Of a stretch of 64,000 nucleotides of DNA, positions 2,692 through 58,228 are shown in pieces. Origin of the DNA: a virus (lineage: Duplodnaviria; Caudoviricetes); IMG/VR virus record IMGVR_UViG_2617270876_000003, positions 64,001 to 128,000 of that record; one strand, written 5' to 3'. The stretch's first letter is position 1. Each line of letters starts with the position of its first letter. Below the pieces are notes generated by a model, which was not told where the DNA came from, made no database searches, and saw only the letters and a list, made by a program, of their open reading frames with translations. The translations under genes were made by a program, and so were the position numbers.

Positions 2692-4236
2692 TTAAATATG
2701 TTGCATGATGGTTTCACTTACAAGGCTCAAAAAACTTTCGCTCTCAATTATTTCTCCTTCAATTCGAGCCCCCATAACATTAATTTCAATTAAAACCTTA
2801 TCCAAATCTTTTAGTTCAACAGCGAAAGGCTCTAATAAATTAGCTGGCTTTTGATACCACGATGACAACTTGTTCTTCATCATATACCATGATCCATAAA
2901 GCTCACCCTCACCTCTTACTAATATTAAATTAAATCCTCTACCATTCACAACTTCTATATAGCCCCAAGCAACGATAAGTCGATCTTTTAGTTTTGGTCG
3001 CCGTACCACTTTTCTCTTTGTCTCAAAAAAACGATCTTCCTCTATCTTTTCAAAATTCTTGTCATACAAAATTTCAAATTTTAGTGTTCCTCTTTCTCCA
3101 GAAGGAAATCTAATATCAATATTGATTCTGTCTTGTTCAAGGCTTCTTATATCTCCAAGATTAATTTGTCCTTTTGTGTATTTCGTATTAAACTCATCAA
3201 TAAATTCTCTAAGCGGAGAATATATTTCTTGTTGGAATTGGTAGTTAATTTCTTTAATGTATTCTAAATGTTCTTTTCGCTTTCTTTCTGCTTCGAGTTC
3301 GAGTGTTTTAAACGAGTCATCCTTACTCACTCTAATGTTCACCAAATTATCTATTAAACTAGAGTTAGAGGTGGGAGGTATATCATCAATTTGCATGGTT
3401 GCCTCTACTTCATTCCAGTTCTTATATCTTCGGGCCACATTTTTTTCCAACATAGTAGTAATCATCTGAATCATTCCATTTGGGATGGAGTCATTGATTT
3501 GTTTTATTGGCTTGATATTTTGATAGAAATGCGCTTGTTGCCAGCTATGCATATCATCGATTGCAACATCATATGGATGTTGCAATGTAGCCAATTCATA
3601 GAACACAATTCCCATAGAGTAAATATCATTCTGTATGGTATTTGTCTCTTGTCTCCACCTTTCTGGTGCAGTATATTTTATTGAACCATCTGCTTTAAAT
3701 GTAAGTTGTCGCGTACCTTCATTAGCGTTTTTAGAAATGCCAAAATCAGCTATTTTTAAAATTCCATCTTTAATAAGTATATTCTCTAGTTTTATATCTC
3801 TATGTACTAAATGCTCATCCTCATTTATTGCTTTCATACCGTTTATTAATTGTGAATAAAGACCCTTTAACTCTGCCACATCAAAAAACTCGCCTTTTTG
3901 TTTTTGCCTTGTAACTGCATCTAATAATGTACCTTGATTGGCAAACTCCATGATTAAATATGGTGGAAGTCCTTTGTAGGTCTCTCCATCGTGTACATAA
4001 AAATATTTTAAAACATTAGTGTGATTAACTCTAAGTGCTGCCTGACATTCATTAAAAAAGGCATCATATGAGTGGGCCGAAGGGAATCCTGTAGGAAGTG
4101 TTTTTAGTGCGGATATGGAATCATCGACCGTATTTCTTAAACGGTACACAAACCCAAATCCTCCTCTTCCTATCATTTCTAAAACCTCGTAGGCTGTCTG
4201 GGCATGGTCAAATGCAATTGTTCCAGGTGTTATCAT
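2692..4236 (-). CDS. Hanks-type serine/threonine protein kinase
   Basis: IGRGGFGFVY glycine loop, ALK, HRDIKLEN catalytic loop, DFG, YTAPE and DIYSMG, followed by a C-terminal domain of unknown function. Confidence 0.95.
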   Translation of the reverse strand: MITPGTIAFDHAQTAYEVLEMIGRGGFGFVYRLRNTVDDSISALKTLPTGFPSAHSYDAFFNECQAALRVNHTNVLKYFYVHDGETYKGLPPYLIMEFANQGTLLDAVTRQKQKGEFFDVAELKGLYSQLINGMKAINEDEHLVHRDIKLENILIKDGILKIADFGISKNANEGTRQLTFKADGSIKYTAPERWRQETNTIQNDIYSMGIVFYELATLQHPYDVAIDDMHSWQQAHFYQNIKPIKQINDSIPNGMIQMITTMLEKNVARRYKNWNEVEATMQIDDIPPTSNSSLIDNLVNIRVSKDDSFKTLELEAERKRKEHLEYIKEINYQFQQEIYSPLREFIDEFNTKYTKGQINLGDIRSLEQDRINIDIRFPSGERGTLKFEILYDKNFEKIEEDRFFETKRKVVRRPKLKDRLIVAWGYIEVVNGRGFNLILVRGEGELYGSWYMMKNKLSSWYQKPANLLEPFAVELKDLDKVLIEINVMGARIEGEIIESESFLSLVSETIMQHI

Positions 4237-18507: not shown

Positions 18508-19443
18508 TCAAAATCCAAATTTATTGAATCCTTCTTTTATAACTTCATTATCTTCCTCGAATGGTGAACCAGTTATCGTTCGTGGCTCCAAATCTTCTTT
18601 TGAGTATTTTTCAGACTCTAAGACACTCCCACCTGTAACAACTAATTCTTTTATTGATGTGCCAACAACAACTCGCTGTCCTTCATCATTTGTTGTTATT
18701 GGCACATAATGCCGTATGTTTCCATACACCTTGATTAACGAACCAAAGTGAATTTTATTGCTCAAATAATCAATTAATTCAGTGTTATCGCCTGATTTAT
18801 AAACGATAAAGTTGTAAGGAATTGCTCTAAAGCCACTCGACTCTTTAATAACTATTTTTCCAAATAAACTATATTTATTTTTATCTATTTGCTCAAAACC
18901 CACAAAAATAACTTCCTGGCTAAAATAAGCCGATATAAAATATTTTTTATCGTCAAAGTTGATTGGATCGTAAGAATAAATACTTTTGATAGTAAACTTT
19001 TCTTGTATTTCTCCATTATAATCTTCAATCTTCGTTGTACCTCTGATCAGTATGGTGTCTCCATCATTTAAATTACTGTTTAGATAGGTGATTGCGTCAT
19101 AACTCATCTGCACTAAATCAGATGGTTCATCATTGATATTTATCTTTATCATATTCGGAATCTTATATTTCTTAGTAATGAATTTATTTAATTCGTTCCA
19201 ATCAACCATTATGTATTTATTATCTTCTCTATTACCATATGCTTCATATACTTTAACCCTTGATGTTTTCATACCCATCAATTCCACATATACAAAGGCG
19301 TTATGGCTTACCTTTATTCCGAATTGTAGTCTTTTCCATTGGCAATCTTCCTTCTCTCCTTCTGTTACGGATTTCGTACTGGACAATCCAGTTACAATTC
19401 CTATTGCTTCGAAGTAACCGTATGTCGGCTGAAGTTCCATCAA
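18508..19443 (-). CDS. second OB-fold/SSB-like protein (paralogue of the neighbouring gene)
   Basis: Similar architecture (IKVYGNI...KELVVTGG) and a C-terminal SPFEED...FGF. Confidence 0.6.
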   Translation of the reverse strand: MMELQPTYGYFEAIGIVTGLSSTKSVTEGEKEDCQWKRLQFGIKVSHNAFVYVELMGMKTSRVKVYEAYGNREDNKYIMVDWNELNKFITKKYKIPNMIKININDEPSDLVQMSYDAITYLNSNLNDGDTILIRGTTKIEDYNGEIQEKFTIKSIYSYDPINFDDKKYFISAYFSQEVIFVGFEQIDKNKYSLFGKIVIKESSGFRAIPYNFIVYKSGDNTELIDYLSNKIHFGSLIKVYGNIRHYVPITTNDEGQRVVVGTSIKELVVTGGSVLESEKYSKEDLEPRTITGSPFEEDNEVIKEGFNKFGF

Positions 19444-19461
19444 CTCACTACCTTAATAAAT

Positions 19462-19665
19462 TTATCTAAAGTCTTCCGCAGGAACCCAAGCTTCATACCC
19501 ATTATCGAATTCAACTCTCAAGTCCTGCTCGTAGCAGCCATTAAACAAATCTGATTTCTCGTCGATTACAACCCCACAATCACCATACTCGATTTCACCC
19601 TCACTATCATAACTATGTGAGAACAATTCTACTCTGTCTCCTACTTCATAAAATAATCCCTTCAA
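19462..19665 (-). CDS. small SH3-like hypothetical protein
   Basis: YEVGDRVEL...G.V...VEFDNG...WV. Confidence 0.6.
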   Translation of the reverse strand: MKGLFYEVGDRVELFSHSYDSEGEIEYGDCGVVIDEKSDLFNGCYEQDLRVEFDNGYEAWVPAEDFR

Positions 19666-19847
19666 TGTACTACCTCCTAAATATTAATCGTTTATGTAAT
19701 CGTGCAACTTCACACGTTATTTTAGTACTTCCTCGCTTCAATATCTTTATAAAAGTATTCTTTCAATTAATTATTATTTATTTTTATCTTATAAAGTAAT
19801 TCTATATATTAACGCCTCTAGAAAGCGATACATATTATCTTTAATCT

Positions 19848-19895
19848 CAGAATAACATACAATATATTAATTATCAATACTTATTTTTACTTTAT
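19848..19895 (-). promoter_or_regulatory. promoter with ATAAAGTAAAAATA box driving the recombination/SSB block
   Basis: ATAAAGTAAAAATAAGTA-TTGATA-17 bp-TATTCT. Confidence 0.7.
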
Positions 19896-19925
19896 AAGTT
19901 TAAGCCGAACTCTTTAGTCCGGCCA

Positions 19926-20333
19926 TTATACATACAGTAAGCATTCCATGTACCAGATGTCAAAATTAGACTTACTATGTATGTTGTACAAGTGTGCAGG
20001 ATCGTGCTGTAAAAGAGATATCTTTTTATGATTCAAAGGTTCCTGGAATAATTGCTGCAAAGCATTCTTTTTATCCTTCTTGAAAAATGAAACAAATTCA
20101 TCGCTGGAATTAAACCTATTTTCTTTTAATCGTTTTTTTCTTAAAGAGAAGGTATGTAATTCAATCTCTCTTCTATTTTTACTTTTACATTTATCAATAA
20201 ATCTGGCTTGTTTCTCTTCGTCCCCTTCTGTTACAAATTCAAACATCTCCCAAAATCCAGTGGCGTTTTTGTTGATTTTTAGTGCTTCGCAATAATCTGA
20301 TTTCATTTGCTTCTCTCCATTTTCTGTTTTCAT
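19926..20333 (-). CDS. hypothetical protein downstream of the agr-like cassette
   Basis: 135-aa ORF. Confidence 0.65.
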   Translation of the reverse strand: MKTENGEKQMKSDYCEALKINKNATGFWEMFEFVTEGDEEKQARFIDKCKSKNRREIELHTFSLRKKRLKENRFNSSDEFVSFFKKDKKNALQQLFQEPLNHKKISLLQHDPAHLYNIHSKSNFDIWYMECLLYV

Positions 20334-20570
20334 ATTTTTGTAGTACTTATCACCTATTTCTTATTTACTAGTTTATAATTTCACCCATTTTTATGCAATA
20401 AAGTTAAGTTTGGGACGAATATTTGTTGACAATTACCCATAACTCGTCTTTAAAGTAAATAAATGTCGATTAGTGTCATAAATAAAGTCGAATGAAGGAC
20501 TATTGTTCTATTTATGTAATATATATCACCAATATATAATAAATCATCTTTTTATTTGTCCTTATTCTTG

Positions 20571-20966
20571 TCAAACTTTTTTCTTGAATAGTCGCTCAAG
20601 ATAATCCTTTACGGCTTGCACTCTCTTTTCGGCAACAGTAATTGTCCGCTTGGTTTGGTTCTTCGACTCATATATTAATAAATCATATTTATGATCATAA
20701 TCAGGTTTTTTATTTAAATTTGCTAAAATCCCTCTGTCAATCTTCACCATTCCTTCTTCTTTTTCTAGCAAAGCATACTCTTTATCAACGGATGTGCAGT
20801 TTCTAAATCTTCCCCTACTAGTGTAATATACCTTAAAAGATTTTTCTTTTTTTGTTGATTCTGTATTTATGTAGTCTATTTCGTCTAAACTTATCCATTC
20901 AGCTTCATCACTCATTTTCTCTCCATCCCACTTACAAACTATGAATGACTTCATGTTGACTCCCAC
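20571..20966 (-). CDS. stand-alone LytTR DNA-binding protein (AgrA-like output domain, no receiver)
   Basis: WISLDEIDYI...VYYTSRGRF...GMVKIDRGILANLNK...TITVAEKR fits the LytTR pattern (I.YI, hT..G, F.r.dR..lvN). Confidence 0.8.
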   Translation of the reverse strand: MGVNMKSFIVCKWDGEKMSDEAEWISLDEIDYINTESTKKEKSFKVYYTSRGRFRNCTSVDKEYALLEKEEGMVKIDRGILANLNKKPDYDHKYDLLIYESKNQTKRTITVAEKRVQAVKDYLERLFKKKV

Positions 20967-20974
20967 TCTCCTTT

Positions 20975-21017
20975 AAAAAATATGTGCATATACCAATAAA
21001 ATATGTATATGCACATA
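20975..21017 (-). terminator. terminator between agrD and the LytTR gene
   Basis: 13-bp stem TATGTGCATATAC...GTATATGCACATA, followed by T6 on the minus strand. Confidence 0.7.
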
Positions 21018-21023
21018 CCGTTT

Positions 21024-21149
21024 TTATTTCATATCTTCCGGTACATCTTCTCCGTGGAGGATGGTCCAGCTTGCTGTTGCGGTTTGAACTACTGCAAAAA
21101 CAGTCAAAACTGTTCCAAGAATACTCATAATTTTATACTTACTCTTCAT
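21024..21149 (-). CDS. agrD: AgrD-like cyclic lactone autoinducer precursor, 41 aa (not in the ORF track)
   Basis: RBS AAGGAGGTG, then MKSKYKIMSILGTVLTVFAVVQTATASWTILHGEDVPEDMK*: amphipathic leader, putative S-W-T-I-L ring and acidic E..P tail. Its start overlaps the agrB stop. Confidence 0.9.
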   Translation of the reverse strand: MKSKYKIMSILGTVLTVFAVVQTATASWTILHGEDVPEDMK

Positions 21150-21690
21150 TAACTATCACCTCCTTTGCTGGAATATGGATCAAAGTCAAAGCCTGCATAA
21201 ACATTGCCAATGTTACAGTTGGATTCTTTAGTATTAATGAAAAAATAATCAATATTAAAGAAATTATCTTAAAAATATGGAAATTTTCTTTTCTGATTCT
21301 TGTACTATTGTTTATTTTAGAAGGAGAAAATATTAAACATAATAAAAAACTAATAATATTAAAAACAATGGAAAGTGAATCATTTACATATACCGAAATC
21401 TCCGTTATTGACAAGATTAAAAGTGTTGACGCAACAATACAAATATCAGCATTTTTCAAGTGGAATCCACCTGAAAATTGACGCAAGATTGAAAATGACA
21501 ATAAACATATTAAACATTTTATGAGAGTATCAGAATATAGACCATATCCAAATATTAATAACAATGGAAGCAGATTAGTAATAATTAACTTGATCGAATA
21601 TCTAGTTTTTTGATATGATGGCATTTCATCTTTGTAATTATTAGTTAGCCATCGAGCAATAAATTCAGAAAAATAATTAATCAATATCAT
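21139..21690 (-). CDS. agrB: AgrB-family membrane peptidase
   Basis: LRQFSGGFHLKNADIC retains the R-x6-H-x6-C catalytic spacing of AgrB. Multi-TM, with an FSP motif. Confidence 0.92.
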   Translation of the reverse strand: MILINYFSEFIARWLTNNYKDEMPSYQKTRYSIKLIITNLLPLLLIFGYGLYSDTLIKCLICLLSFSILRQFSGGFHLKNADICIVASTLLILSITEISVYVNDSLSIVFNIISFLLCLIFSPSKINNSTRIRKENFHIFKIISLILIIFSLILKNPTVTLAMFMQALTLIHIPAKEVIVNEE

Positions 21691-22330
21691 CCCTCATTTG
21701 TTTTTTGGTTTCAAGAACATAAATATTAAAAATACATAATATCCAAAACAGAATTTCTACTATTATATTATTAAACCTTGAAATATTGAGAAACATTATT
21801 ACAACCACTATAGAAGAAAGTATCAAAATTGTGTTTACTTTTGTGAATTTAATTTTATATGAATAATCATAAGGGAGAGTAGTAAAGTATAATCTTTTTC
21901 TTCTCATCAAAACACTTGATAATATCATAATTGATCCACTAATAATTTGAAGTAAACATCTTAAAAAATCGTTCTCTTGAATTTCTGAAATATTTGTATG
22001 TATAACCATAGTTGTAATAAGCACCAATACCAATTGAATTATCGCCTGTGAAACAAATCCTATTATTGTTAATCTAATAGATGAAAATACTGAAATTCTA
22101 AAATAAAATAATAACGATAAAAATAATAATATTAAACTGAACACAGATGTATAATTTTGAAAGTTATCGTGTTGGCTCAAAAAATAATTGCCAGTTGATA
22201 TAATAAACGCCGTAAGGAATATTTCTTTCCAATAACTTTTTAAATCAACTTTGAATGATCCAAAAGCAAATGTCAGAATTGAAACACCATCAATCATTGA
22301 AAACAGTATGTATACCAAAGCACTTCCCAT
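21677..22330 (-). CDS. polytopic membrane protein, AgrC-sensor-like but with no histidine kinase domain
   Basis: About 7 TM helices, coupled to agrB. It ends immediately after the last TM, with no H-box or HATPase. Confidence 0.7.
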   Translation of the reverse strand: MGSALVYILFSMIDGVSILTFAFGSFKVDLKSYWKEIFLTAFIISTGNYFLSQHDNFQNYTSVFSLILLFLSLLFYFRISVFSSIRLTIIGFVSQAIIQLVLVLITTMVIHTNISEIQENDFLRCLLQIISGSIMILSSVLMRRKRLYFTTLPYDYSYKIKFTKVNTILILSSIVVVIMFLNISRFNNIIVEILFWILCIFNIYVLETKKQMRDDID

Positions 22331-22381
22331 TACCCTTCCCCCGTTCGATTTATAAAGTAAATATAATTAACTTATGAATTA

Positions 22382-22409
22382 ATAATACCACAATATTCTA
22401 GCATGTCAA
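22382..22409 (-). promoter_or_regulatory. sigma-A promoter of the agr-like operon
   Basis: TTGACA-16 bp-TATTAT with extended TG. Confidence 0.7.
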
Positions 22410-22420
22410 CACTAAAATTC

Positions 22421-22454
22421 AAAAAAAAAGAAACGGGCTATTCTCCCGTTTCTT
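22421..22454 (-). terminator. terminator of the yopQ/yopR-like operon
   Basis: AAGAAACGGG/CCCGTTTCTT stem followed by a T-tract on the minus strand. Confidence 0.75.
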
Positions 22455-23442
22455 CGTCACCAATTAGTGGGTATAAAGATTCAATAGTTTCAATGTTTAG
22501 GAAGTCTGTTGTTAAGCGATTTACTCCTTTATAATCAATGTCAAACTTTCTACATACTTTCATTAGCTCTGTGCGTTCAAACTTGCCACTCTCACGATAA
22601 AGCTCATTTGCGTACTTCAACATACCCGATTTTCTGATATTAATTGGTGTTAAGTATGGGTAATCGAACCATTTGGCTATTTTTTTTATTCGTCTTGAGA
22701 CCAAGTTCGGTGGAGCATTATCTATATATTTTACATTTAATGCAACTGGTCTAAATACATAAGGAGACTCAATTAACTCTGCATCTCTAGCTTTAATAAA
22801 AACACTTTCGTTTCCGTTTGACTTATAATACACGGTTTGATGTGCAGCACTATATAGTAAGTTCATTAATTTTTGACTTATTTCTATTTCCCTTGTTTCC
22901 AGTGGCCCTTCTGCTGGTTTATTGCGAAGCGTAATATAACCATTTCCCCGGTCTACATCTTTCTCTAAGATATTTAATATTTCTGAGTATGCTCTTCCCA
23001 TTATCCCCTCGAATAAACACTGTATCAATGCAGAGTCTTGGGGATTGACAATGCGCCCAATAAACGAATTAATTTCTTCATCCGAAAACAAATATTTATT
23101 ACTTGTATCCACATAACTTTGTATTAATTCATCAGTTAGAGCTGCATCTAAAGGATTTATATTGTCAGCCCTAAGGTCTTCTTTAATTGCCCATCTTATA
23201 TATCTTCTAATTGTTAGTATCTGTGATTTACTTGACAAAAAAGTTGTTGGTGAAAGTAATTTCATTAACTGCCCAATTTCATACAAATTAAAATTAAATA
23301 AATCTTTGTTTAATTGCTCTTCTAAATAAGAGGCTCTTTTCAATACCCTAGAATAAGTATTGTATGTAGATTCCTCTAATCCCTTTAGATATCGATCTTT
23401 CTGGGGTTTATTAAAAAATTTATCTTCATATATTTTATTCAT
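22438..23442 (-). CDS. yopR: YopR/MrpR-like lytic-cycle repressor (degenerate tyrosine-recombinase fold)
   Basis: FN...K..YL, EE.LNKDLFNF, YI.WA, VNPQD..LI..LFEGI.G..YSE.L, YY.SNG and LTP.NI.KSG.L match SPbeta YopR as I recall it. The GxRxxE Arg and the HxLR His are substituted. Confidence 0.85.
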   Translation of the reverse strand: MNKIYEDKFFNKPQKDRYLKGLEESTYNTYSRVLKRASYLEEQLNKDLFNFNLYEIGQLMKLLSPTTFLSSKSQILTIRRYIRWAIKEDLRADNINPLDAALTDELIQSYVDTSNKYLFSDEEINSFIGRIVNPQDSALIQCLFEGIMGRAYSEILNILEKDVDRGNGYITLRNKPAEGPLETREIEISQKLMNLLYSAAHQTVYYKSNGNESVFIKARDAELIESPYVFRPVALNVKYIDNAPPNLVSRRIKKIAKWFDYPYLTPINIRKSGMLKYANELYRESGKFERTELMKVCRKFDIDYKGVNRLTTDFLNIETIESLYPLIGDEETGE

Positions 23443-24764
23443 TTTTTCTCCCCGCTTTCAACAAGAGCGTTGAAATATTTTAATACCTTTTTTCTTAAGG
23501 CTGATGAATTAATACCTCTTTTAGTATCACTAAGCAATCCATTTAGCTCTTCATCTTTTAAATTTAAGTTTTCAACATAGTTCTTTAATTCTTTTAATTC
23601 AATATTGTTGTCTTGAAAATACTTGGCAATTACAGTATATCCAATAAACATCAAAGGATGATTAATATTTGTGTCTTTGTATTTTTGAGGGCTTAATAAA
23701 AACTGGTCAACAAAACTTCCCGTCAGATAATCATAAAATTTAATCAGATATGTCGCCACTTCTCTTGCTTCAAGATTACTTTTTGGCTTAAATACATTTT
23801 CAATAGCATAAGACATTATATCAAATGTTGTAAGTTGCCCTGCAATTTCTGAAATTTTTGGCGATGATGCAATTTTTCCTTTTAGGTCTGACTTTTGTTG
23901 AAGTTCCTGTACAACAATGTCTTCTTTTCCTTCTGAAATCAATTCTTTTCTTCTTTGTTCCGGCACAACATTTATCGTATTTATTTGACCAAAAAATCTT
24001 TTTGCTGTTTCATCATTATAAACCCTAATCGACAAACCCATCATTTGAGGAAGTTCTGAATTAATTGATATAGCTCTAATCCCACCTTGAAGTCGATGAA
24101 ATCCATCAAGAATCGAAATTATCACATTTTCATTTATTATAAGTGTTTTCGCTTCCTCATTATATTCTACTGGATTATCACTATCTGAATATATATTTAA
24201 TGTTATGGTATCGTCCAAATAATTTTCTTTTAACATCTCTCTGGAAATGTCTTCAACACTTGATGGATTAATATCTGGTACCTGTACAATCCCATCTCTT
24301 CCTGCTATATATTTTGCGCTTCGTTGAGTTTCGAATTTATAAATAATTAATTGTGAATGAAACATTTGCACTAAATAAGACATCTCAACCTTGGTCAAGT
24401 AACTATTCTGTGTCACTCTTATTACATCATTAAATGCAATTGGCAAATATATTCGGTTTTCTTTTGTGTAAAGTGATCTAGCGTGTTTTTTAGATGTTTC
24501 AATCTCATTCTCAGTAAACCACTCCTTAGGATCTACATCCTTATAACCTGTAATTTGGTAAATTCCATCTGTTAATAAACAAAGAACAGGAGACTCAATT
24601 AAAGATACTTGTTGTATACCTTTAACGATATCTTCAAATGTTCCCAGTGGAATTCCATACTCCAAAAGATAACTACTTATATTGAATATTTTCTTTCTCG
24701 ATTTTTTTACTTCCCTTATTCTTTCTTGAATATGCAATTCAAGTTCTTCCCGATCTTTTAACAT
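23439..24764 (-). CDS. yopQ: YopQ-like DndB/DGQHR (ParB-fold) protein
   Basis: ETQR, ITLN, ILDGFHRL and F.QIN motifs, coupled upstream of the yopR-like gene as in SPbeta. Confidence 0.82.
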   Translation of the reverse strand: MLKDREELELHIQERIREVKKSRKKIFNISSYLLEYGIPLGTFEDIVKGIQQVSLIESPVLCLLTDGIYQITGYKDVDPKEWFTENEIETSKKHARSLYTKENRIYLPIAFNDVIRVTQNSYLTKVEMSYLVQMFHSQLIIYKFETQRSAKYIAGRDGIVQVPDINPSSVEDISREMLKENYLDDTITLNIYSDSDNPVEYNEEAKTLIINENVIISILDGFHRLQGGIRAISINSELPQMMGLSIRVYNDETAKRFFGQINTINVVPEQRRKELISEGKEDIVVQELQQKSDLKGKIASSPKISEIAGQLTTFDIMSYAIENVFKPKSNLEAREVATYLIKFYDYLTGSFVDQFLLSPQKYKDTNINHPLMFIGYTVIAKYFQDNNIELKELKNYVENLNLKDEELNGLLSDTKRGINSSALRKKVLKYFNALVESGEKK

Positions 24765-31021: not shown

Positions 31022-31444
31022 TTATCTAAAATTTGTTCTGTTGCTATAATATTTTTTATTCCCTAACATGCTAATCATCCACGCTTTTTCTAATTCATCA
31101 TGATACTCTTCAGGTATATGTGTCAACTTCCTATTACCAATTAGTTCTGTATCTTTACTTAGGGTGAATATTTGTTCGAATTGAATAATACTATCACGTT
31201 GAAAGCCAACATCTTCTGCTGAGATATGTACCTGTGTCGGTAATTTGTTTTTAGTTTTGCTACTTGTAATAGGAGCTACAATAACCACAGGAGATCTTTG
31301 ATTTCCAACATCATTGCTAATGACAAGGACTGGTCTTTTTCCACCTTGAACATGTCCATTTGATTCTCCTAAATCTGCAAACCACACATCATATTGTTTA
31401 ACATCTTTTAATTTATTTTTATTTTCATAAGTTAGTGTACTCAT
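31022..31444 (-). CDS. mazF: PemK/MazF (EndoA/NdoA-like) endoribonuclease toxin
   Basis: DVWFADLG...G.VQGGKRPVLVISNDVGN..SP.VIVAPITS....KLPT.V...RDS.I..EQI.T.SK. The RBS GGAGG precedes MSTLTY. Confidence 0.92.
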   Translation of the reverse strand: MSTLTYENKNKLKDVKQYDVWFADLGESNGHVQGGKRPVLVISNDVGNQRSPVVIVAPITSSKTKNKLPTQVHISAEDVGFQRDSIIQFEQIFTLSKDTELIGNRKLTHIPEEYHDELEKAWMISMLGNKKYYSNRTNFR

Positions 31445-31550
31445 ATTATTGCCTCCTAAAACATGTCTTATATGTACTGTAGCTACTACTTTATGTTTCA
31501 TTCTTCCCTCTTATGTATTTAATTATACTTATCTTTTAAATTATCTCAAG

Positions 31551-31564
31551 GGAACATTTGTTCT
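31551..31564. promoter_or_regulatory. LexA/DinR (Cheo) box upstream of the mazF-like gene
   Basis: gGAAC-ATTT-GTTCt next to the -35 (TTGAGA...TATAAT on the minus strand). Confidence 0.7.
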
Positions 31565-32853: not shown

Positions 32854-33216
32854 CTAGTTACCAGAATACACATTCTTTGTGATTGGATAATAATAAATCT
32901 CAATATCTTCGTGAATGAAGCCTCTTCTTTGAGCAGCCAAAAGAGTTTCATACATGTTTGCTCTTCCTACGGGATTGTCTGTATGTAAATATATCTTATC
33001 AACTTTTAATCCATACTCACAAAAATATTTAACTAAATCATAGCCATTTGGTAACTCATGTCCATGTTCATCTTCGCCTAGATCATGATCCAGAGTCAAA
33101 ATATTAACATCTTGAGATTCAATAATGGCTATTGCCTCTTCATATGTACGAGCAAGTATAAACCCTTCAGGACAATCACGAAGATCGTCTACATACAGGT
33201 TAATTTGCTGTGGCAT
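32854..33216 (-). CDS. cyclic-phosphate-processing receiver-domain protein
   Basis: LYVDDLR..P.GF..ART..EAI...LDHDLG...GYD......HT.NP.G..NM. Confidence 0.85.
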   Translation of the reverse strand: MPQQINLYVDDLRDCPEGFILARTYEEAIAIIESQDVNILTLDHDLGEDEHGHELPNGYDLVKYFCEYGLKVDKIYLHTDNPVGRANMYETLLAAQRRGFIHEDIEIYYYPITKNVYSGN

Positions 33217-34158: not shown

Positions 34159-34977
34159 TTATCCAGCTTCCTGGATATCAATAAGCATCTGTCTAACTTT
34201 GTCTAAGTGTTCTTCACTCATAATTCTGCCTCCAGTATTAAGCATCAGGAAATATCTTAATTTTTGTTCTCTGTCTAAATTGTGAGTCTCAGCAACATTA
34301 ACAGTGTATCTTTTAAAATGGAGTTGATCTTTTGGAGACAAATCCTTAAAGTAAAATCCTTTGTACTTGAATCTACTTTCATAGAAATCCAAGATCGATT
34401 TATATCTCTGCTTTCCATCAAGTATCTCGTAAGCATATTTAAAACCATTTTTCTCCCACTCATCATCGGAGAGGTGAATAAAAGCAAACTTACCAATATC
34501 CACATTATTATAAATTGCATCAATTAATTTAATCTTATCGGTTTCTTCCCAAACATATTCACGTTGATACTCTGGATCAAAATCCACTCCGAAATAATAA
34601 GCTTTGTGAAACAAAGATTCTAATCCTGTTTGCGAATAATTAAGCCTAATATCATCATTTTTCACAAATGATGCTCTATTATCGTTCAGTTTTTTGACAT
34701 CCATCCAATTACAATAGCTCTTTTGGTTTTCATTTCTAATTGGATTTCCGTAATTATTGTTTATTGAAGTGTATCCTATTTCAATGATTTTCCCATTATG
34801 AAGAATGTTTAATACTACAACATCTTCTAATGCACCAAGTCCAACGCTTTCTCCAATTTCAAAAGAGTAGGTTGGATCGGGGATAAGAAACAATCTGTCC
34901 TCCAAATTCTTTAATTCTCTCATGTGATTATCTTGTTTTAGTCTTTCCTGGTTGGCTTCTGTTTTCTTTTTTGCCAT
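34159..34977 (-). CDS. DUF262 (ParB-like, GmrS-type) domain protein
   Basis: PEYQREYVW...K.KLID.I...IG.F...EILDGKQR...F..LNTGG. Confidence 0.88.
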   Translation of the reverse strand: MAKKKTEANQERLKQDNHMRELKNLEDRLFLIPDPTYSFEIGESVGLGALEDVVVLNILHNGKIIEIGYTSINNNYGNPIRNENQKSYCNWMDVKKLNDNRASFVKNDDIRLNYSQTGLESLFHKAYYFGVDFDPEYQREYVWEETDKIKLIDAIYNNVDIGKFAFIHLSDDEWEKNGFKYAYEILDGKQRYKSILDFYESRFKYKGFYFKDLSPKDQLHFKRYTVNVAETHNLDREQKLRYFLMLNTGGRIMSEEHLDKVRQMLIDIQEAG

Positions 34978-35633: not shown

Positions 35634-35969
35634 TTATTTTACGATCTCATTCCACTTATTGGAAACTACATAAATATCCAGATTCGATCCATCGAGTTTA
35701 ATAGTGTGGTTTACAATGTTATGCTCAACGACTTTACTTGAATTAATTATTACATCTCTGTCCGCTCTAATAAAATCACTACTTACAGAATTAAGTACCG
35801 CCTGCGCCTCTTCAAGTGTCTGAGGCATATTCAGTTCTCCATATGCAGTGATGTATGTTAGTGATTGATTCTTACTATTTCGAACAGCTAAAATTTCACT
35901 GTCTTTTACCCACATTACTTCAATTTCATTTAACTCATTGCGTTTGATTAATCCGAACATAGTCATCAT
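35634..35969 (-). CDS. second stand-alone LytTR-like protein
   Basis: WVKDSEILAV...YITAYGE...TLEE....L.....DFIRADRDVIINSSKV, bounded by sites 35625 and 36006. Confidence 0.72.
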   Translation of the reverse strand: MMTMFGLIKRNELNEIEVMWVKDSEILAVRNSKNQSLTYITAYGELNMPQTLEEAQAVLNSVSSDFIRADRDVIINSSKVVEHNIVNHTIKLDGSNLDIYVVSNKWNEIVK

Positions 35970-36043
35970 CCTCCGATATTTTATATTATGTATTTCGACA
36001 ACACCATGAAATAAACCTTTCGTCATATCTTACCCACATCTTA

Positions 36044-36091
36044 ATTATACAATAAAGAATTCTATTTATCAATTATTTATTTTTACTTTAT
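36044..36091 (-). promoter_or_regulatory. promoter with ATAAAGTAAAAATA box, immediately upstream of junction site 36006
   Basis: ATAAAGTAAAAATAAATAA-TTGATA-17 bp-TATAAT. Confidence 0.75.
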
Positions 36092-41156: not shown

Positions 41157-41201
41157 ATTATAACACATATAATTATTCATGTCTATTTATTTTTACTTTA
41201 T
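41157..41201 (-). promoter_or_regulatory. promoter with ATAAAGTAAAAATA box
   Basis: ATAAAGTAAAAATAAA-TAGACA-17 bp-TATAAT with extended TG. Confidence 0.8.
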
Positions 41202-50586: not shown

Positions 50587-51909
50587 TTAAACGTGTGTAA
50601 CCGTTACAAGATTAAATTTAACTAATTCATGTTTCAATATTTCTTCTATATCTTCAAACTTCCAATATGGAATTCGTAAAAGTGGTATATTATTATTATT
50701 ACAGAATTCATTTTTTATTTCGTCATTGTTTCGAGTGTTCATAAATGCCTTTTCACCAAAAATTGGTCTATAGTGCTGTTCTCCATCATATTCAATCAAC
50801 ATGTTAATATCTTGACTTCTCGAAAATACTACAAAATCAAAAGGTAATCTCCTTATATTTTTACATTCTTTAATTCTAAATTGTGTTTTGAAATTAATCT
50901 TCAAATCTGTTAATAATTTTGATATTTGCAATTCTCCTTTGGATTGTATGCATTTCGGGCATCTCTTACCGTTTTTAAAATTACCAAAAGAAGTATAGTA
51001 TACATGATTTTTGTCGCATTGAATTTTCAATTTCTGTGAATTGTTTTTATAGCTCTCTGATAGTAGTCGATAACCTGTATTTGATTTCCCTTCTATATAT
51101 TCTTTTACGTATTTATATTCTAACGGAACTGTACCCATACATATTTTACATCTATGTCCATTGAGAAAATGTATAAACTTCATCTCAACTATATGCCCTT
51201 TTGGGCATTGGACAATTACTTTTTTTGCACTTGTTTCATACGTAGACATTAAGATGTATCCTGCTTTGTTTATTATTAACTCTGCTTCTTCTTGACTTCT
51301 CCTGAGATTATCACTAGCCGTTGCCTTTGAGCATTTGGGACAGTGAGGCCCGTTAAGAATAGTTGACGGAGATGCTTTCCATTCATAACCACATATTTTA
51401 TGTTTGGTTAAAATTGGTGTTTTGCGATTAATATATGTTTCTAAGATTTCATATTCAGTTCCCTTGTTTAAATTTTCGACTTCTTTTAGATAGGAATTAT
51501 GGGTTTTCTTGGGGGTACTAAAACAATATGAACACCTATGTCCATTTAAAAAATTGTTTGGCTTTACTTTATAAATATTTCCGCAATTAACATGTTTCAT
51601 TAAAATGTGTTTATTCGATAACTCATAATCACTTTCTAAAACATATTCATTTCCCACCAAATCATAAATTTCTTTAACAAATTGAGCATGTTCCTTCCTT
51701 GTTTTTTCTTGCAACTTAAATTTTGTACAATTATTACATCGTTGTTTATTTTGGTCTCTGAAATGATTAAAGGTTGTTATAAATATATTGCCGCACTTAC
51801 ACTTAATAGTCAGTTTTTCACGATTATTACTATATTCAGTATTTATCAATACACAGGATTGTTCGTTAATGTATTTACTTACCTCTTCGTAAGTCAATTT
51901 TTTTGTCAT
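50587..51909 (-). CDS. zinc-ribbon-repeat protein with a C-terminal PD-(D/E)XK/Vsr-like nuclease (homing-endonuclease-like)
   Basis: About five C..GH/C..C repeats, then SKGE, LPFDF, IEYDGEQH and KN.FC..NNI.LLRIPYW. Confidence 0.85.
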   Translation of the reverse strand: MTKKLTYEEVSKYINEQSCVLINTEYSNNREKLTIKCKCGNIFITTFNHFRDQNKQRCNNCTKFKLQEKTRKEHAQFVKEIYDLVGNEYVLESDYELSNKHILMKHVNCGNIYKVKPNNFLNGHRCSYCFSTPKKTHNSYLKEVENLNKGTEYEILETYINRKTPILTKHKICGYEWKASPSTILNGPHCPKCSKATASDNLRRSQEEAELIINKAGYILMSTYETSAKKVIVQCPKGHIVEMKFIHFLNGHRCKICMGTVPLEYKYVKEYIEGKSNTGYRLLSESYKNNSQKLKIQCDKNHVYYTSFGNFKNGKRCPKCIQSKGELQISKLLTDLKINFKTQFRIKECKNIRRLPFDFVVFSRSQDINMLIEYDGEQHYRPIFGEKAFMNTRNNDEIKNEFCNNNNIPLLRIPYWKFEDIEEILKHELVKFNLVTVTHV

Positions 51910-51919
51910 AGTTTCTCCT

Positions 51920-54900
51920 TCAAGAAATATTTTGCTCTCCCCATGTTAAGCGTACAGATCCATTTTCATCATATTCTTTTGTAATAATACTACTAAATAT
52001 ATCTAAACTTATCCCAAATTCTCCGAATATCTCAGCATCCTCCTTATATTCACACTGTTTAACAAATTCATTGATCCGTTGTTTGGACATCAACAAAGCC
52101 AGAATATTCTGCTCCAAGGTATTTAAATAAGTTACAAAGTGGATCATTGTTTTATTCTTGCTGTTAAGTCTCGTAAAACGGCCTATATACTGCATCATAT
52201 TCGCAATGTTATATTGTAGACCCTCGCATATTACAACGTCACAAGAAGGGATATTGACGCTCTCAGAGAGACTCATCTGTGTAGAAATGAGCAATCCGTT
52301 TTCTGTTGCTTCAAATTCTTTTATAATCTCTTGACGCTTTTTAAATGGAGTTTCGCCTAATATCAAAAATATAGGTCGCTCTTTAAACTCAGTTCTTAAT
52401 TTATTGTAATAATAAGTTGCCGAATCAATAAATGTTGTTCCGATTGCTACTTTATCGCTATTTGCACTGTTAATAATTTTTACTATTTTTTTATATTTAT
52501 TCGGCTCCACCTTACCATCATATTCCTTCAATTTATGCGGAATAGAAACAGCTTTTTGTAGCAATTGTATCTGTTGAATAATTCTCAACATTGCATCGCG
52601 TCTATAGTTGCCAGACGTTCCATAATAGCCCCTAACAATGGAGTGGAACTCTTCCATAATTAATCTATATACTTCTTGTTCATTGTCATTCTGGCTTATT
52701 CTATGCGTCTTAAACTCGACCACATCTTTAGTCATGACATCAAACATGCTACGGACAATAATAGTTTTTTCAATAAGTTTAACAAGTTTGCTCGAATTCA
52801 TAATGTCTTGATTTCCTTTTTGAATTCCAAACACAGAAGTTTTTTTAGGAGAGAAACAAGAAGAAAAAACGCTTTGTTTGTATGCAGGAAAAGGATGTTT
52901 ATAATATTTATTATGTTCCTCTTTCCACTCTCCTGTTTTTTTATCCTCGGATAAAACAGTTTCACATTCACAAATACAATTTATGCTGCTACCGTAAAGG
53001 ATCATGAATTGTGAATACAATTCGTTAGCTGTATTTTTAGTTGGCGTTCCCGACATTAATAATTTATATGGTACTTTTTGAAATACATTGATGGTCGCCT
53101 TTGTTGTTTTTGTGTTTGGGTATATGCAGCGGTGACTCTCATCTAAAATGAAAGCAATTTTTCTGCCCTGCATCTTTATATATTTTTTGATATTTTTTTG
53201 ATATTTAACTAACATATTAAAAGATATTAAAACTATATCGTCAGGCTGAATATTGTGAATGTCTGATAATGTTTCTATTTTTTTATATGGAAGGTCATAG
53301 GATTCTAATCTATCCGTCCATGTCATTTTAATTGAAATACTGGAAGATACAATAAACGTATTTCTTATGCTATTATTTTCAATGAAATACTTCATCCACG
53401 TTATTCCTGCTTCTGTCTTTCCCAGTCCAACATTCCAAGCAAGCAAAGCCCGATCCTTTTGTAATATCTTTTGTATATCTTCTTTCTGAAAATTTTTAAG
53501 TTTTATAAATTGTTTTGAATTTTTATTATATAGCGTGAAGGCTTCAAGCCAGTCTGATATATATTCATTCTGTCCTATCTCCTTAAATGGCTTGCTTTGC
53601 TGAGTATGTGCTTTAATTTTTTTATTGAGTAGTTTTCTATATGTTTGATCTTCAAACGGGTATTCACCTTTTAAAATCATGTCATTAAAACTAACCTCTT
53701 TAACTCCAGTAAACTTCGATAAGTATATTTTATTTTTGTGTGAGTATCCTTTTAGTTTTAGACTGTTAGATTTCTTGACCAATTTAATACAATCATGCTC
53801 TACTCTGTGTTGATTTTTTAGTATTTTCTTCAACTTTGAAATAATCATATTCGGCGTTAACTTAGCATTAGACCATTCTTCCGCAGACATTCCCTCCGGT
53901 TTTACCTGAATTTTATATCTATGTAACATTTCACTACATTTTGCATAATGAATGCACGTTTTTTGATTTCTTTTAATGTCGAACAAAAGTTTATTAACTT
54001 TGAACTGAAAATCCTGCTCTTCTTTGGTATTACTATTTGCTGCTGCAATCTCATAAAATAGTTTCGCTTTTAATGTTTCCTTTTGTTGCATAACTGGTGC
54101 TATGTATTGAGTATGATATTTATCGGCTATCTCAGCAGAAAACTCACTAATTAATATTCCTTTATTACTGTACGGAATATCTGTTAAATGCCCACTTTTG
54201 CGCTGAAAGAATAATATTTTAGTTTTAAAATTATTTACTCCAACGTTTTTAAATACATCGCTAGGTAAATTTAATTGTAATAAAAAGTTAAATTTATCAT
54301 TAATCATTTCTATATCTATCTTGTTTGAAAATTCATCGGCAAGAAAAGTGTCTGGAACAATGATGCAAAATAGAGAGGAGGGTTTTAAGAGTTCGGCAGA
54401 TTTTAAACAGTAGTACATCTGACTTGTTACTTTCTTATTATCCCATTTGAAGCCCTCTATATTATACGGAGGATTTCCACAAATTAAATCGAAACGGGTT
54501 AATGGTGTATATTCCCGAATATCGCCTAACGTTGCGTTAACTTTAGGATATAAAAATTTTTGAACTTTGAAAGATTTAATGTCAATCTCATTTGTATAAA
54601 CATTCTCATGACACGGCAACCAGTTTAAAAAAGCACCATGACCCGCTGTAAAGTCTCCAATTATGTCGTGAATGGACGGTTTGAGCATCAAAGATAGGAA
54701 ACGGGTTAATTCATAAGGTGTATAAAATTGTCCATTTTCTATTTCACGTTTTGCGGAAGAAAATTCATGGAAGTTGGCATAATCACTAAAAGATAGCCCA
54801 TGTAAACCACCATCTCCAGAATAACATAAAAACACATGATTTTTAGAGATTCCATGCTTTTCTGTCAGATTGTTATCGATCAAATAAAGCACTTTTTCAT

Positions 54901-54961
54901 TTATTTCCTTTCTTTTATTTTGAGGAATAATAACGTTATTTAATTCATACATAATTGTCAC
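51920..54961 (-). CDS. N6-adenine methyltransferase-SNF2 helicase fusion (DarB-like)
   Basis: GQFYTP, DFTAGHGAF and GNPPY, then W.VGLGKT, ILDESH, MSGTP..N, SESVNIP and Q.IGRFTR. Confidence 0.88.
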   Translation of the reverse strand: MTIMYELNNVIIPQNKRKEINEKVLYLIDNNLTEKHGISKNHVFLCYSGDGGLHGLSFSDYANFHEFSSAKREIENGQFYTPYELTRFLSLMLKPSIHDIIGDFTAGHGAFLNWLPCHENVYTNEIDIKSFKVQKFLYPKVNATLGDIREYTPLTRFDLICGNPPYNIEGFKWDNKKVTSQMYYCLKSAELLKPSSLFCIIVPDTFLADEFSNKIDIEMINDKFNFLLQLNLPSDVFKNVGVNNFKTKILFFQRKSGHLTDIPYSNKGILISEFSAEIADKYHTQYIAPVMQQKETLKAKLFYEIAAANSNTKEEQDFQFKVNKLLFDIKRNQKTCIHYAKCSEMLHRYKIQVKPEGMSAEEWSNAKLTPNMIISKLKKILKNQHRVEHDCIKLVKKSNSLKLKGYSHKNKIYLSKFTGVKEVSFNDMILKGEYPFEDQTYRKLLNKKIKAHTQQSKPFKEIGQNEYISDWLEAFTLYNKNSKQFIKLKNFQKEDIQKILQKDRALLAWNVGLGKTEAGITWMKYFIENNSIRNTFIVSSSISIKMTWTDRLESYDLPYKKIETLSDIHNIQPDDIVLISFNMLVKYQKNIKKYIKMQGRKIAFILDESHRCIYPNTKTTKATINVFQKVPYKLLMSGTPTKNTANELYSQFMILYGSSINCICECETVLSEDKKTGEWKEEHNKYYKHPFPAYKQSVFSSCFSPKKTSVFGIQKGNQDIMNSSKLVKLIEKTIIVRSMFDVMTKDVVEFKTHRISQNDNEQEVYRLIMEEFHSIVRGYYGTSGNYRRDAMLRIIQQIQLLQKAVSIPHKLKEYDGKVEPNKYKKIVKIINSANSDKVAIGTTFIDSATYYYNKLRTEFKERPIFLILGETPFKKRQEIIKEFEATENGLLISTQMSLSESVNIPSCDVVICEGLQYNIANMMQYIGRFTRLNSKNKTMIHFVTYLNTLEQNILALLMSKQRINEFVKQCEYKEDAEIFGEFGISLDIFSSIITKEYDENGSVRLTWGEQNIS

Positions 54962-55842
54962 TCCTCATTTCCTTGATATCTAAACTCACCAAAATATTTA
55001 ATTTCTGCCTCTTTTCTTGTTGAAAAAGCATCTTCAAAATTATTGAATGTTCCTAAATGTATGTATTTTTTATTTATATGTATTCCAGCGATGTATTTAC
55101 CATTTTCATATTGTTTGATGCCTGAAATATTTAAACTTTCATTTTTCGGCGTTCTATTTCTTGTATTATCTGCCACAGTGCAGATTCTAATATTGGCCCT
55201 TCTATTATCACAAGGAGTATTATTTTTATGATCAACAATATCATTATTTTTTGCATTTAAAAGTAAACGGTGTAAAGATATTGTCCTAACATTTCCTAAT
55301 TCGTCAGTTTCTCTACTTCTCACATACCCGTTATCATCCATACACCAACTATATTTACTTATCAACTCAAAATCTTCTACATTAAAATAAAATTCCCATC
55401 CCTTAGAAGTCATTCCAACAAAGTAAGTATCACATTCAAAGAACTTATTTATTGATTCTTTATTTTTACATCCACAATGGGTTATTTGTCTACCATCTTT
55501 TCTTTTTAAGTCATTTCTAGGAACAATTTTATCTCCTCCGCAATCACATTGACATAACCATGTCGAAGTATGCCCACTCAATCCCACTCTTTGAACAACA
55601 ACCAAATTCCCAAATCGTTTCCCCGTTAAATCCTTCAACTTCTTCATGTTTCGATTGCATCCACAACTCTTTGATAAACCTCTGACGAGATAAGTTTCAG
55701 GTACAAGTTTTTTAGTTCTATGGCATTCAGTGCAGACGCACAACCATTGTTTTAAATTTGTTTTTTCTTTTTTGGGTCCTTGTTCTAATACAAACCATTT
55801 TCCAAACTTTTCACCAATTAAATCATCTATTTTTTTCTCCAC
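54958..55842 (-). CDS. HNH/AP2 homing endonuclease
   Basis: Two DL.G.KFG...WLC.C.CG...SCGC repeats, LHR...VDHKN....DNRR.N.R and HLGTF..FEDA...RKEAE.KYFGEF. Confidence 0.9.
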   Translation of the reverse strand: MEKKIDDLIGEKFGKWFVLEQGPKKEKTNLKQWLCVCTECHRTKKLVPETYLVRGLSKSCGCNRNMKKLKDLTGKRFGNLVVVQRVGLSGHTSTWLCQCDCGGDKIVPRNDLKRKDGRQITHCGCKNKESINKFFECDTYFVGMTSKGWEFYFNVEDFELISKYSWCMDDNGYVRSRETDELGNVRTISLHRLLLNAKNNDIVDHKNNTPCDNRRANIRICTVADNTRNRTPKNESLNISGIKQYENGKYIAGIHINKKYIHLGTFNNFEDAFSTRKEAEIKYFGEFRYQGNEE

Positions 55843-55925
55843 AAATTCCCTCCTTTTTTTTGCTGTTCTATCAATTATATTATTTCAGCCAGCAAAAAGT
55901 GCTGGCTGTTATACGGTCTTTTAGT

Positions 55926-58183: not shown

Positions 58184-58228
58184 ATTATAGCATGGTTTAT
58201 ATTGTATGTCTATTTATTTTTACTTTAT
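58184..58228 (-). promoter_or_regulatory. promoter with ATAAAGTAAAAATA box
   Basis: ATAAAGTAAAAATAAA-TAGACA-17 bp-TATAAT with extended TG. Confidence 0.8.

Follow-up and report, generated by a model that had tools for sequence, protein, structure and literature searches.

A kinase-less agr-type cassette with a stand-alone LytTR protein beside the repressor gene of an SPbeta-like prophage

We analysed a 64,000-nucleotide stretch of a virus of the Caudoviricetes (IMG/VR record IMGVR_UViG_2617270876_000003, positions 64,001 to 128,000; this whole stretch is called the window, and its positions are counted from its first letter). The subject is a cassette of four genes at positions 19,926 to 22,409 and its surroundings, which encodes a seven-helix membrane protein, an AgrB-type peptidase, an AgrD-type peptide precursor and a LytTR protein, and which lies immediately downstream of the gene for an MrpR-type repressor. 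We consider the chances about even that this cassette is an intact member of a widespread, uncharacterised four-gene branch of the agr systems that operates without phosphorelay and that has become fixed in the lysis-lysogeny control region of a lineage of SPbeta-like prophages.

An agr-type cassette without a kinase

The cassette lies wholly on the minus strand and has the anatomy that the original prediction gave it from the letters of the DNA: a promoter, a seven-helix membrane protein of 217 aa that lacks a kinase domain, AgrB, a 41-aa AgrD, a terminator-like hairpin and a LytTR protein that lacks a receiver domain (Table 1). The position described there also held, since the cassette follows the yopQ- and yopR-like genes (phrog_5732 and PF22822/PF22823, respectively) and precedes an SOS-box-like promoter and the block of Sak4 and single-stranded DNA-binding protein genes, a placement kept in five genomes and five contigs. 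All four reading frames are intact and have ribosome-binding sites and overlapping stops and starts; the membrane-protein gene and agrB overlap by 14 nt, and agrB and agrD by 11 nt.

The cassette promoter is the top-scoring site within positions 19400-22700, a region in which promoter-like sites are not enriched overall (18 found, 21.3 expected). It stands directly 3′ of the intrinsic terminator of the mrpR/yopR-like gene, which would separate the cassette from the repressor transcript, and a promoter immediately behind a terminator was present in all six loci compared. The hairpin between agrD and the LytTR gene has a folding energy of -19.7 kcal/mol (z -4.3), and none of 200 shuffled sequences folded equally well. 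A hairpin and T-run of unrelated sequence was found at the same spot in four of the five relatives compared, and none was seen in the remaining locus (L040).

The predicted products of the cassette

AgrB is the most readily recognised product. Its translation has R70, H77 and C84 (counted by eye), in agreement with the Arg/His/Cys spacing noted at the outset, and the His and Cys columns, which are 7 residues apart, are invariant in 35 of 35 aligned AgrB sequences. We take these two residues to correspond to the catalytic pair of S. aureus AgrB. Based on the register with the conserved tail Pro, AgrD would give a Ser-lactone ring of sequence SWTIL with the tail HGEDVPEDMK; its relatives carry SWTVI, SWTIV and SWTLI at the putative ring position.

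The membrane protein matched no family in the Pfam and NCBIfam scans, which also detected no HATPase_c_5 kinase part; the host genome has 10 HATPase_c_5 matches, all of them outside the prophage. Its AlphaFold2 (AF2) model shows seven long helices with a mean predicted local distance difference test (pLDDT) score of 78.7. The ESM Atlas model of the protein aligned over 204 residues, with a template-modelling (TM) score of 0.61, to a cluster of 422-aa HATPase_c_5 (AgrC-type) kinases, and in this predicted structure the protein resembles the membrane part of the AgrC-type kinases. Foldseek returned no match at E ≤1e-3, and the family profile had no match among the PDB sequences. The closest relatives are named Paenibacillus proteins. 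The near-invariant residues of the family are only F26, G91, Q99 and Q128, and its alignment contains no conserved His, Cys, Ser, Asp or Glu; without a conserved residue of catalytic type, the protein shows no sign of being an enzyme. Among 8000 candidates, we found no longer relatives in which the membrane protein is fused to another part, which is weak evidence. A 426-aa frame in G016, which at first looked like such a fusion, was taken as an over-long frame; the match occupies its C-terminal part, the DNA is of high GC content, and an AgrB-sized open reading frame (ORF) follows it.

The last protein of the cassette gave no Pfam match of its own, as it scored below threshold, and its assignment is based on its relatives and its model. 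While a word-based homolog search returned only the protein itself, an exhaustive search gave 26 matches, including its own 114-aa form; 24 of the 25 others are 76-145 aa long, and one has 1380 aa. The family alignment comprises 24 sequences, among them 23 of the 25 non-self matches; P0018 (a 76-aa fragment) and P0026 (the 1380-aa protein) were left out. PF04397 was matched by 14 of the 24 aligned members (best E 1.6e-11), and the top PDB matches of the family profile were the LytTR domain of AgrA (1.3e-3) and ComE (0.013). The AF2 model (pLDDT 94.8) consists of a single domain plus a C-terminal helix, whose residues 109-125 are conserved. The top ten Foldseek rows for this model were all LytTR domains, with weak scores (best E 1e-2, TM 0.38-0.47), and VIA-align gave Z 5.5 to ComE and Z 4.7 to 3d6w, both for the whole model. 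On these grounds, we assign the protein to the LytTR regulators, as a divergent member that lacks a receiver and carries an extra C-terminal helix.

At positions 35634-36026, the minus strand encodes another LytTR protein that stands alone (130 aa; PF04397, 27.5 bits, cut-off 22.6), a distant paralog of the cassette protein (hhalign probability 88%). Its gene is the first behind a promoter with the repeated box described below, and no membrane-protein gene lies beside it.

Distribution of the cassette and its linkage to the repressor gene

We surveyed 401 genomes of the host's bacterial family. Relatives of the membrane protein occur in 128 of them; AgrB was encoded directly beside the membrane protein in 30 of 30 loci fetched, and 21 of these loci also contain a LytTR-like gene. 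The gene order YopQ, MrpR, membrane protein, AgrB, AgrD, LytTR and a 135-aa protein recurs, at about 34% G+C, in five genomes from a sister genus and in five IMG/VR contigs (128-204 kb), with protein identities of 29-58%. Some of the IMG/VR contigs are possibly the same prophages as the loci of the related genomes, and the figures for L057 are identical to those for L038.

Homologs of MrpR were found in 39 of the 401 genomes. In 10 of 30 MrpR loci fetched, parts of the module lie within about 4 kb downstream of MrpR; these 10 loci are the window, four close relatives and five diverged loci with other gene orders (AgrB-membrane protein-AgrD-LytTR, or LytTR-gap-membrane protein-AgrB-AgrD-LytTR). 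On a tree built from 34 membrane-protein sequences, those linked to MrpR fall into three separate clades with supports of 100/100, 100/100 and 92/89, the third of which has long branches. Alignment A2 and this tree leave out the near-duplicates L014, L015, L020, L023, L031 and L032, and the tree is also without L054-L057. The presence of cassettes from three separate clades at the same spot argues for a functional tie to the switch, though kin are not independent.

The host genome contains three AgrB genes (PF04647), each preceded by a gene for a membrane protein and followed by one for a LytTR protein, and all three cassettes lie in low-GC DNA. One of the two others, at 3.263 Mb, is inside a phage-like low-GC island of ~52 kb (about 3.257-3.310 Mb), and its AgrD ends in ...TASVIYVYQGNTPNELLK. 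This island is colinear with the virion-gene block of the large prophage and has a CI-like helix-turn-helix repressor and an integrase. The other cassette, at 4.727 Mb, has a Lys-type AgrD-like ORF (...AAVLKPLYHSPEIPQELRK; ORF at about 4.7279 Mb, L036 5870-5998) with no Cys or Ser at the ring position. Additionally, the host encodes an AgrC-type kinase (HATPase_c_5, 5.2e-23) beside a LytTR response regulator at 1.0946-1.0975 Mb, with no AgrB nearby, and this pair is a possible reader of foreign cyclic peptides.

The switch region of the prophage

The host genome has 5.87 Mb and 50.2% G+C, and the window is inside an island of ~197 kb (about 4.232-4.428 Mb) with 31-38% G+C. Its genes include those for an MrpR-type repressor, a YopQ-like protein, a Sak4-like annealing protein, a helicase and homing endonucleases. 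Among phages, the repressor is best matched in the SPbeta group and in other large Bacillus-type phages, at 26-31% identity, and phi3T carries the same repressor domains (PF22822/PF22823). As in an SPbeta-type switch, the repressor has the integrase fold and MrpR domains, and a YopQ-like gene comes before it; the element is an SPbeta-like prophage. A blastn search with positions 19700-22500 against 50,697 phage records gave no match.

Downstream of the LytTR gene, a site with one mismatch to GAAC-N4-GTTC, which we take to be the LexA box consensus, is followed by a direct repeat (Table 1). In an alignment of the spacer between LytTR and the next gene from 10 loci, the nine others carry a perfect GAAC-N4-GTTC at this position. 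The first repeat copy reads TTCGACA in eight of 10 phage loci, which is the reverse complement of TGTCGAA, presumably the Spo0A box, and hints that sporulation status might gate the same promoter. The gene that follows encodes a 135-aa protein of no known family. Homologs of this protein are encoded directly after MrpR in four loci that have no cassette, where two perfect GAAC-N4-GTTC boxes and one with one mismatch were found; the protein has no similarity to Sar of phi3T, and the ESM Atlas held no usable neighbour of it.

In phi3T and SPbeta, the repressor SroF (YopR) is described as being inactivated by a small antirepressor, Sar, which is encoded just downstream and controlled by LexA (10.1101/2025.11.27.690993). 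In its positions, the layout downstream of the present cassette resembles this arrangement of a repressor and a LexA-controlled antirepressor.

The window also contains a repeated 15-bp box, ATAAAGTAAAAATAA, of which we found 13 copies with at most one mismatch (0.19 expected), 12 of them on the minus strand, which is the sense strand of the genes. Examples are the copies at 19881-19895, 36077-36091, 41187-41201 and 58214-58228, and many of the 13 lie directly against a -35 element. The island as a whole has 24 copies and the rest of the genome nine, of which a second low-GC island holds four. A single copy of the window is inverted; it is part of an operator-like 22-mer in the 5′ untranslated region (UTR) of the cassette. 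Read on the opposite strand, this 22-mer is identical to a copy that lies 24.5 kb upstream of the window and overlaps a -10 element. We infer that the box is a candidate operator of the MrpR-type repressor or, alternatively, a promoter element. If it is such an operator, the cassette may be kept silent in lysogens and come on soon after infection, as the arbitrium genes do. The inverted box in the leader suggests that the cassette is wired into phage regulation. SroF has been reported to recognise an asymmetric box of 24-26 bp that is present in many copies across the phage (10.1101/2025.11.27.690993). In the 16-20 kb loci of the relatives, no 11-mer was repeated in at least 4 copies.

Finally, a search with phi3T AimR and Pfam family PF22871 gave no match in the own genome of the prophage, in line with the original prediction, which had seen no aimR/aimP-like receptor or peptide upstream of yopQ, and none in the five genomes with syntenic prophages or in the 401 genomes of the family. 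The same search was positive in Bacillus subtilis.

Table 1. Features of the cassette and of the adjoining switch region (window positions)
Feature	Position	Strand	Remarks
YopQ (SroE)-like DndB-related gene	23439..24764	-	phrog_5732, 5.4e-106; DndB 24.4 bits, below cut-off of 29.1
MrpR/YopR (SroF)-type integrase-fold master repressor gene	22438..23442	-	PF22822, 6e-23; PF22823, 2.4e-14; phrog_5830, 6.5e-79
Intrinsic terminator ending the mrpR/yopR-like gene	22427..22455	-	11-pair stem with 5 GC pairs, then T-run
Cassette promoter	22382..22409	-	TTGACA-16-TGnTATTAT, with TG extension; 11/12 matches
Operator-like 22-mer in cassette 5′ UTR	22348..22369	+	Only inverted copy of the ATAAAGTAAAAATAA box in the window
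Membrane protein, candidate peptide sensor	21677..22330	-	217 aa; no kinase domain; phrog_15604 'membrane protein', 4.5e-14
AgrB-type membrane peptidase	21139..21690	-	PF04647, E 7.9e-22; 77.9 bits, cut-off 23
AgrD precursor	21024..21149	-	41 aa; TIGR04223, 23.5 bits, cut-off 19
Hairpin and U6 between agrD and LytTR gene, terminator or attenuator	20975..21017	-	13-bp perfect stem (20981-21017)
Divergent LytTR DNA-binding protein, no receiver	20571..20954	-	127 aa from the likely ATG at 20954; longest frame from 20966, 131 aa
LexA-box-like site GAACAATAGTCC	20497..20508	-	One mismatch to GAAC-N4-GTTC; just 3′ of an extended -10-like element
Direct repeat GACA-N5-CGACA	20463..20479	-	Invariant columns in 10 phage loci; 3′ of the SOS-like box, then TGTCAA
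135-aa protein of no known family	19926..20333	-	Candidate SOS-controlled antirepressor by position only

Interpretation and alternatives

In the mechanism that we propose for the cassette, AgrB would cyclise AgrD to a Ser-lactone peptide with the ring SWTIL, which would be released from the cell, and the seven-helix membrane protein would sense this peptide. As it has no kinase part, the membrane protein might touch the LytTR protein directly and so retain it or set it free, in the way of the membrane inhibitors of the LytTR Regulatory Systems (LRS). The output of LytTR would then feed the phage switch, in which a signal of density or kin would be combined with SOS induction. We infer the role in lysis-lysogeny from the setting of the cassette. 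A bolder version, which we put forward tentatively, is that the arbitrium-less SPbeta-like phages of this family use a phosphorylation-free agr circuit, placed between the master repressor and the antirepressor under SOS control, in which a bare seven-helix sensor reads a cyclic peptide and directly gates a bare LytTR protein, so that the density of kin sets lysogenisation and induction, and in which co-resident phage-like elements carry different peptides to count their own kind. The second phage-like element of the same genome, with its own cassette and a different AgrD, speaks for the proposal of a signalling role in the phage switch.

Several points weigh against it. Sequence comparison does not establish the homology of the membrane protein to AgrC sensors; hhalign gave a probability of 1% against the N-terminal 205 aa of the host AgrC-type kinase and of 7.5% against a 24-sequence alignment of AgrC-type sensor domains. 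The structural support for the LytTR identity of the last protein is modest (VIA-align Z 5.5 and 4.7, Foldseek E 1e-2), and the contact between the two proteins is proposed by analogy with the LRS. The mrpR terminator abuts the -35 element, which leaves no room for an upstream activator site, and the promoter is therefore probably not an autoinduced one of the P2 type. In addition, a search for LytTR-type direct repeats (9-mers with at most one mismatch, 18-24 bp apart) upstream of 22 cassettes found a few isolated pairs and nothing consistent. At 20 of the 30 MrpR loci there is no cassette within 9 kb, which makes the module an accessory to the switch. The claim that the cassette replaces arbitrium finds little support, as AimR is missing from all 401 genomes, with or without a cassette, including those with the 20 cassette-less MrpR loci; the survey of mutual exclusivity that had been suggested as a check is thus uninformative on this point. 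Finally, the module is frequent outside MrpR contexts (in the 128 of 401 genomes noted above), where it presumably controls host genes, so that a host-directed or cross-talk role is equally open.

This last observation also favours an alternative in which the cassette is a module of lysogenic conversion or interference. Its own cyclic peptide would alter the host, or it would jam or eavesdrop on other agr-like cassettes, with no input to the phage decision. Two further cassettes with different AgrDs (...TASVIYVYQGNTPNELLK and the Lys-type ...AAVLKPLYHSPEIPQELRK) are indeed present in the genome, the cassette follows the repressor terminator with a strong promoter of its own, an arrangement frequent in morons, and roles of this kind were proposed for phage agr genes by Hargreaves et al. 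(PMC3901668). Nevertheless, cargo would not be expected to come from three separate clades and to sit exactly behind MrpR-type genes, at a position that is stable in 10 related phage loci, and the inverted promoter box in the 5′ UTR suggests that the cassette is connected to phage regulation. We regard this alternative as rather unlikely.

The division of labour within the cassette could also be a different one. The membrane protein might be a factor for maturation, export or self-protection and the LytTR protein a conventional regulator that it does not control, in which case the peptide, if sensed at all, would be read by a host kinase such as that of the pair at 1.095 Mb. In S. aureus, peptide maturation is reported to require a second membrane protease, MroQ (PMC9388083); the host has an orphan HATPase_c_5 kinase that neighbours a LytTR response regulator and has no AgrB in its vicinity, profile comparisons give no link between the membrane protein and sensors of the AgrC type, and the terminator-like hairpin separates agrD from the LytTR gene. 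However, the membrane-protein family has neither conserved residues of catalytic type nor a match to a Pfam protease family, a LytTR-like gene co-occurs in 21 of 30 loci, and the predicted structure resembles the membrane part of AgrC-type kinases, and we judge this division of labour improbable. That the cassette is a decaying or silent passenger without present function is the least credible of the readings and, in our view, very improbable. The score of the LytTR protein below the Pfam threshold would fit decay, but none of the four frames is broken, ribosome-binding sites and stop-start overlaps are present, AgrB retains its catalytic His and Cys, the unit is conserved across relatives that share just 29-58% protein identity, and the LytTR model is confident (pLDDT 94.8).

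If the phosphorelay-free reading is true, the cassette stands for a form of agr-type cyclic-peptide signalling without phosphorelay that is widespread, occurring in 128 of 401 genomes of one family. Peptide signals would then have a new route across the membrane, and the orphan LRS would gain a defined ligand. The cassette would also tie peptide communication to the lysis-lysogeny decision of large temperate phages beyond arbitrium and receptors of the RRNPP type. The system lends itself to direct tests, given a peptide that can be predicted, a small number of genes, and the present understanding of the repressor/antirepressor framework in SPbeta-like phages.

Other genes of the window

A phage-borne gene for a MazF/PemK-like toxin lies at 31022-31563 (PF02452, 2.7e-25). 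Close to its start, at 31552-31563, is the one GAAC-N4-GTTC box of the window that is perfect. Every related phage locus has a homolog of this gene in the vicinity of the YopQ-like gene; in phi3T, the MazF of the host is described as part of the arbitrium circuit (PMC10769878). At 32854-33216, the minus strand encodes a cREC_REC (cyclic-phosphate processing receiver) protein (PF20274, 5e-30), whose gene is the best conserved of the neighbourhood, with 74-80% identity in the relatives versus 30-55% for their other genes. In the region 50587-58127, two HNH or homing-endonuclease genes and the gene for a primase-related protein of 733 aa flank that of a 1013-aa helicase with a methyltransferase-like N-terminal part. 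The window also encodes a GmrSD_N protein (34159-34977) and a Ser/Thr-kinase-like protein (2692-4236).

Comparison with known systems

Compared with canonical agr systems (agrBDCA of S. aureus and agrABCD of P. polymyxa), the cassette has the His/Cys pair of AgrB, a five-residue ring position in AgrD, an acidic AgrD tail with a conserved Pro and, for the probable reading side, a membrane protein with several helices together with a LytTR domain. AgrB and an adjacent AgrD were found, whereas an AgrC kinase and a receiver-bearing AgrA were not; the membrane protein lacks the dimerisation/phosphotransfer (DHp) and ATPase parts, and LytTR lacks a receiver. The gene order also differs, with the sensor-like gene first and LytTR last behind a hairpin, and the promoter is near consensus, with no consistent repeats found upstream. 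The agr loci published for P. polymyxa are described as being of the kinase and regulator types (PMC12180512, PMC13700820).

The arbitrium system is likewise a phage-encoded secreted-peptide system near the yopQ/yopR (sroE/sroF) repressor genes of an SPbeta-like phage. The present cassette differs from it in having no AimR, in its predicted AgrB-made cyclic peptide instead of a linear hexapeptide that is taken up, and in its location downstream of the repressor gene, arbitrium being upstream of the sro operon.

The LRS of S. mutans, HdrRM and BrsRM, are described as consisting of a receiver-less soluble LytTR regulator that is co-encoded with a membrane protein and works without phosphotransfer (PMC6193735). 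A soluble LytTR regulator without receiver is also found here. In LRS operons, according to the same work, the regulator gene is upstream of that of the membrane inhibitor, often as one of two genes, and peptide-making genes are not included (PMC6193735); in the present cassette, the membrane-protein gene comes first and LytTR last, with agrB, agrD and the hairpin between them. Additionally, the signal of the LRS is unknown, whereas a dedicated peptide is encoded here, by a cassette whose membrane protein matches no Pfam family.

The agr3 locus of the C. difficile phage phiCDHM1 is similar in that a temperate phage carries agrB and agrD (PMC3901668). According to that paper, the locus includes a complete AgrC kinase homolog (453 aa) but lacks a regulator, in contrast to the present cassette, which has no kinase but a LytTR protein. 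A tblastn search with the present AgrB at E 1e-3 did not reach phiCDHM1. The same 2014 paper (Hargreaves et al., PMC3901668) reports agr genes with kinase-less membrane proteins in three phages, so that a kinase-less agr-like membrane protein, correctly recognised in the window by the original prediction, is not new to phages; in the excerpts of the paper, no LytTR partner is named for those cassettes. Our literature searches found no description of the four-gene unit with LytTR or of a tie to SPbeta-type switches. As far as these searches go, therefore, agr genes in phages are already known, and the unit with LytTR and its recurrent tie to MrpR are not in print.

The closest known systems are those of the Brevibacillus phages Abouo, Davies and Emery, the gene comparison covering Abouo (gp44-47) and Davies (gp45-48). 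Both carry the same four genes in the same order on one strand, encoding a membrane protein of ~220 aa, AgrB, an AgrD of ~40 aa and a protein of ~122 aa. Their AgrB proteins are 28-33% identical to the present one over 67% of the query, and the cassettes share PHROGs 15604, 10353 and 15081 with ours; the last of these is common to the present LytTR protein and to the last gene of the Brevibacillus cassettes, which is annotated as 'peptidase' in GenBank. Abouo and Davies are 45-kb phages with cI-type repressors, whereas the present element is an SPbeta-like prophage of ~197 kb with an MrpR-type repressor; in Abouo and Davies, too, the cassettes belong to the lysogeny region, with the integrase on one side and the repressors on the other.

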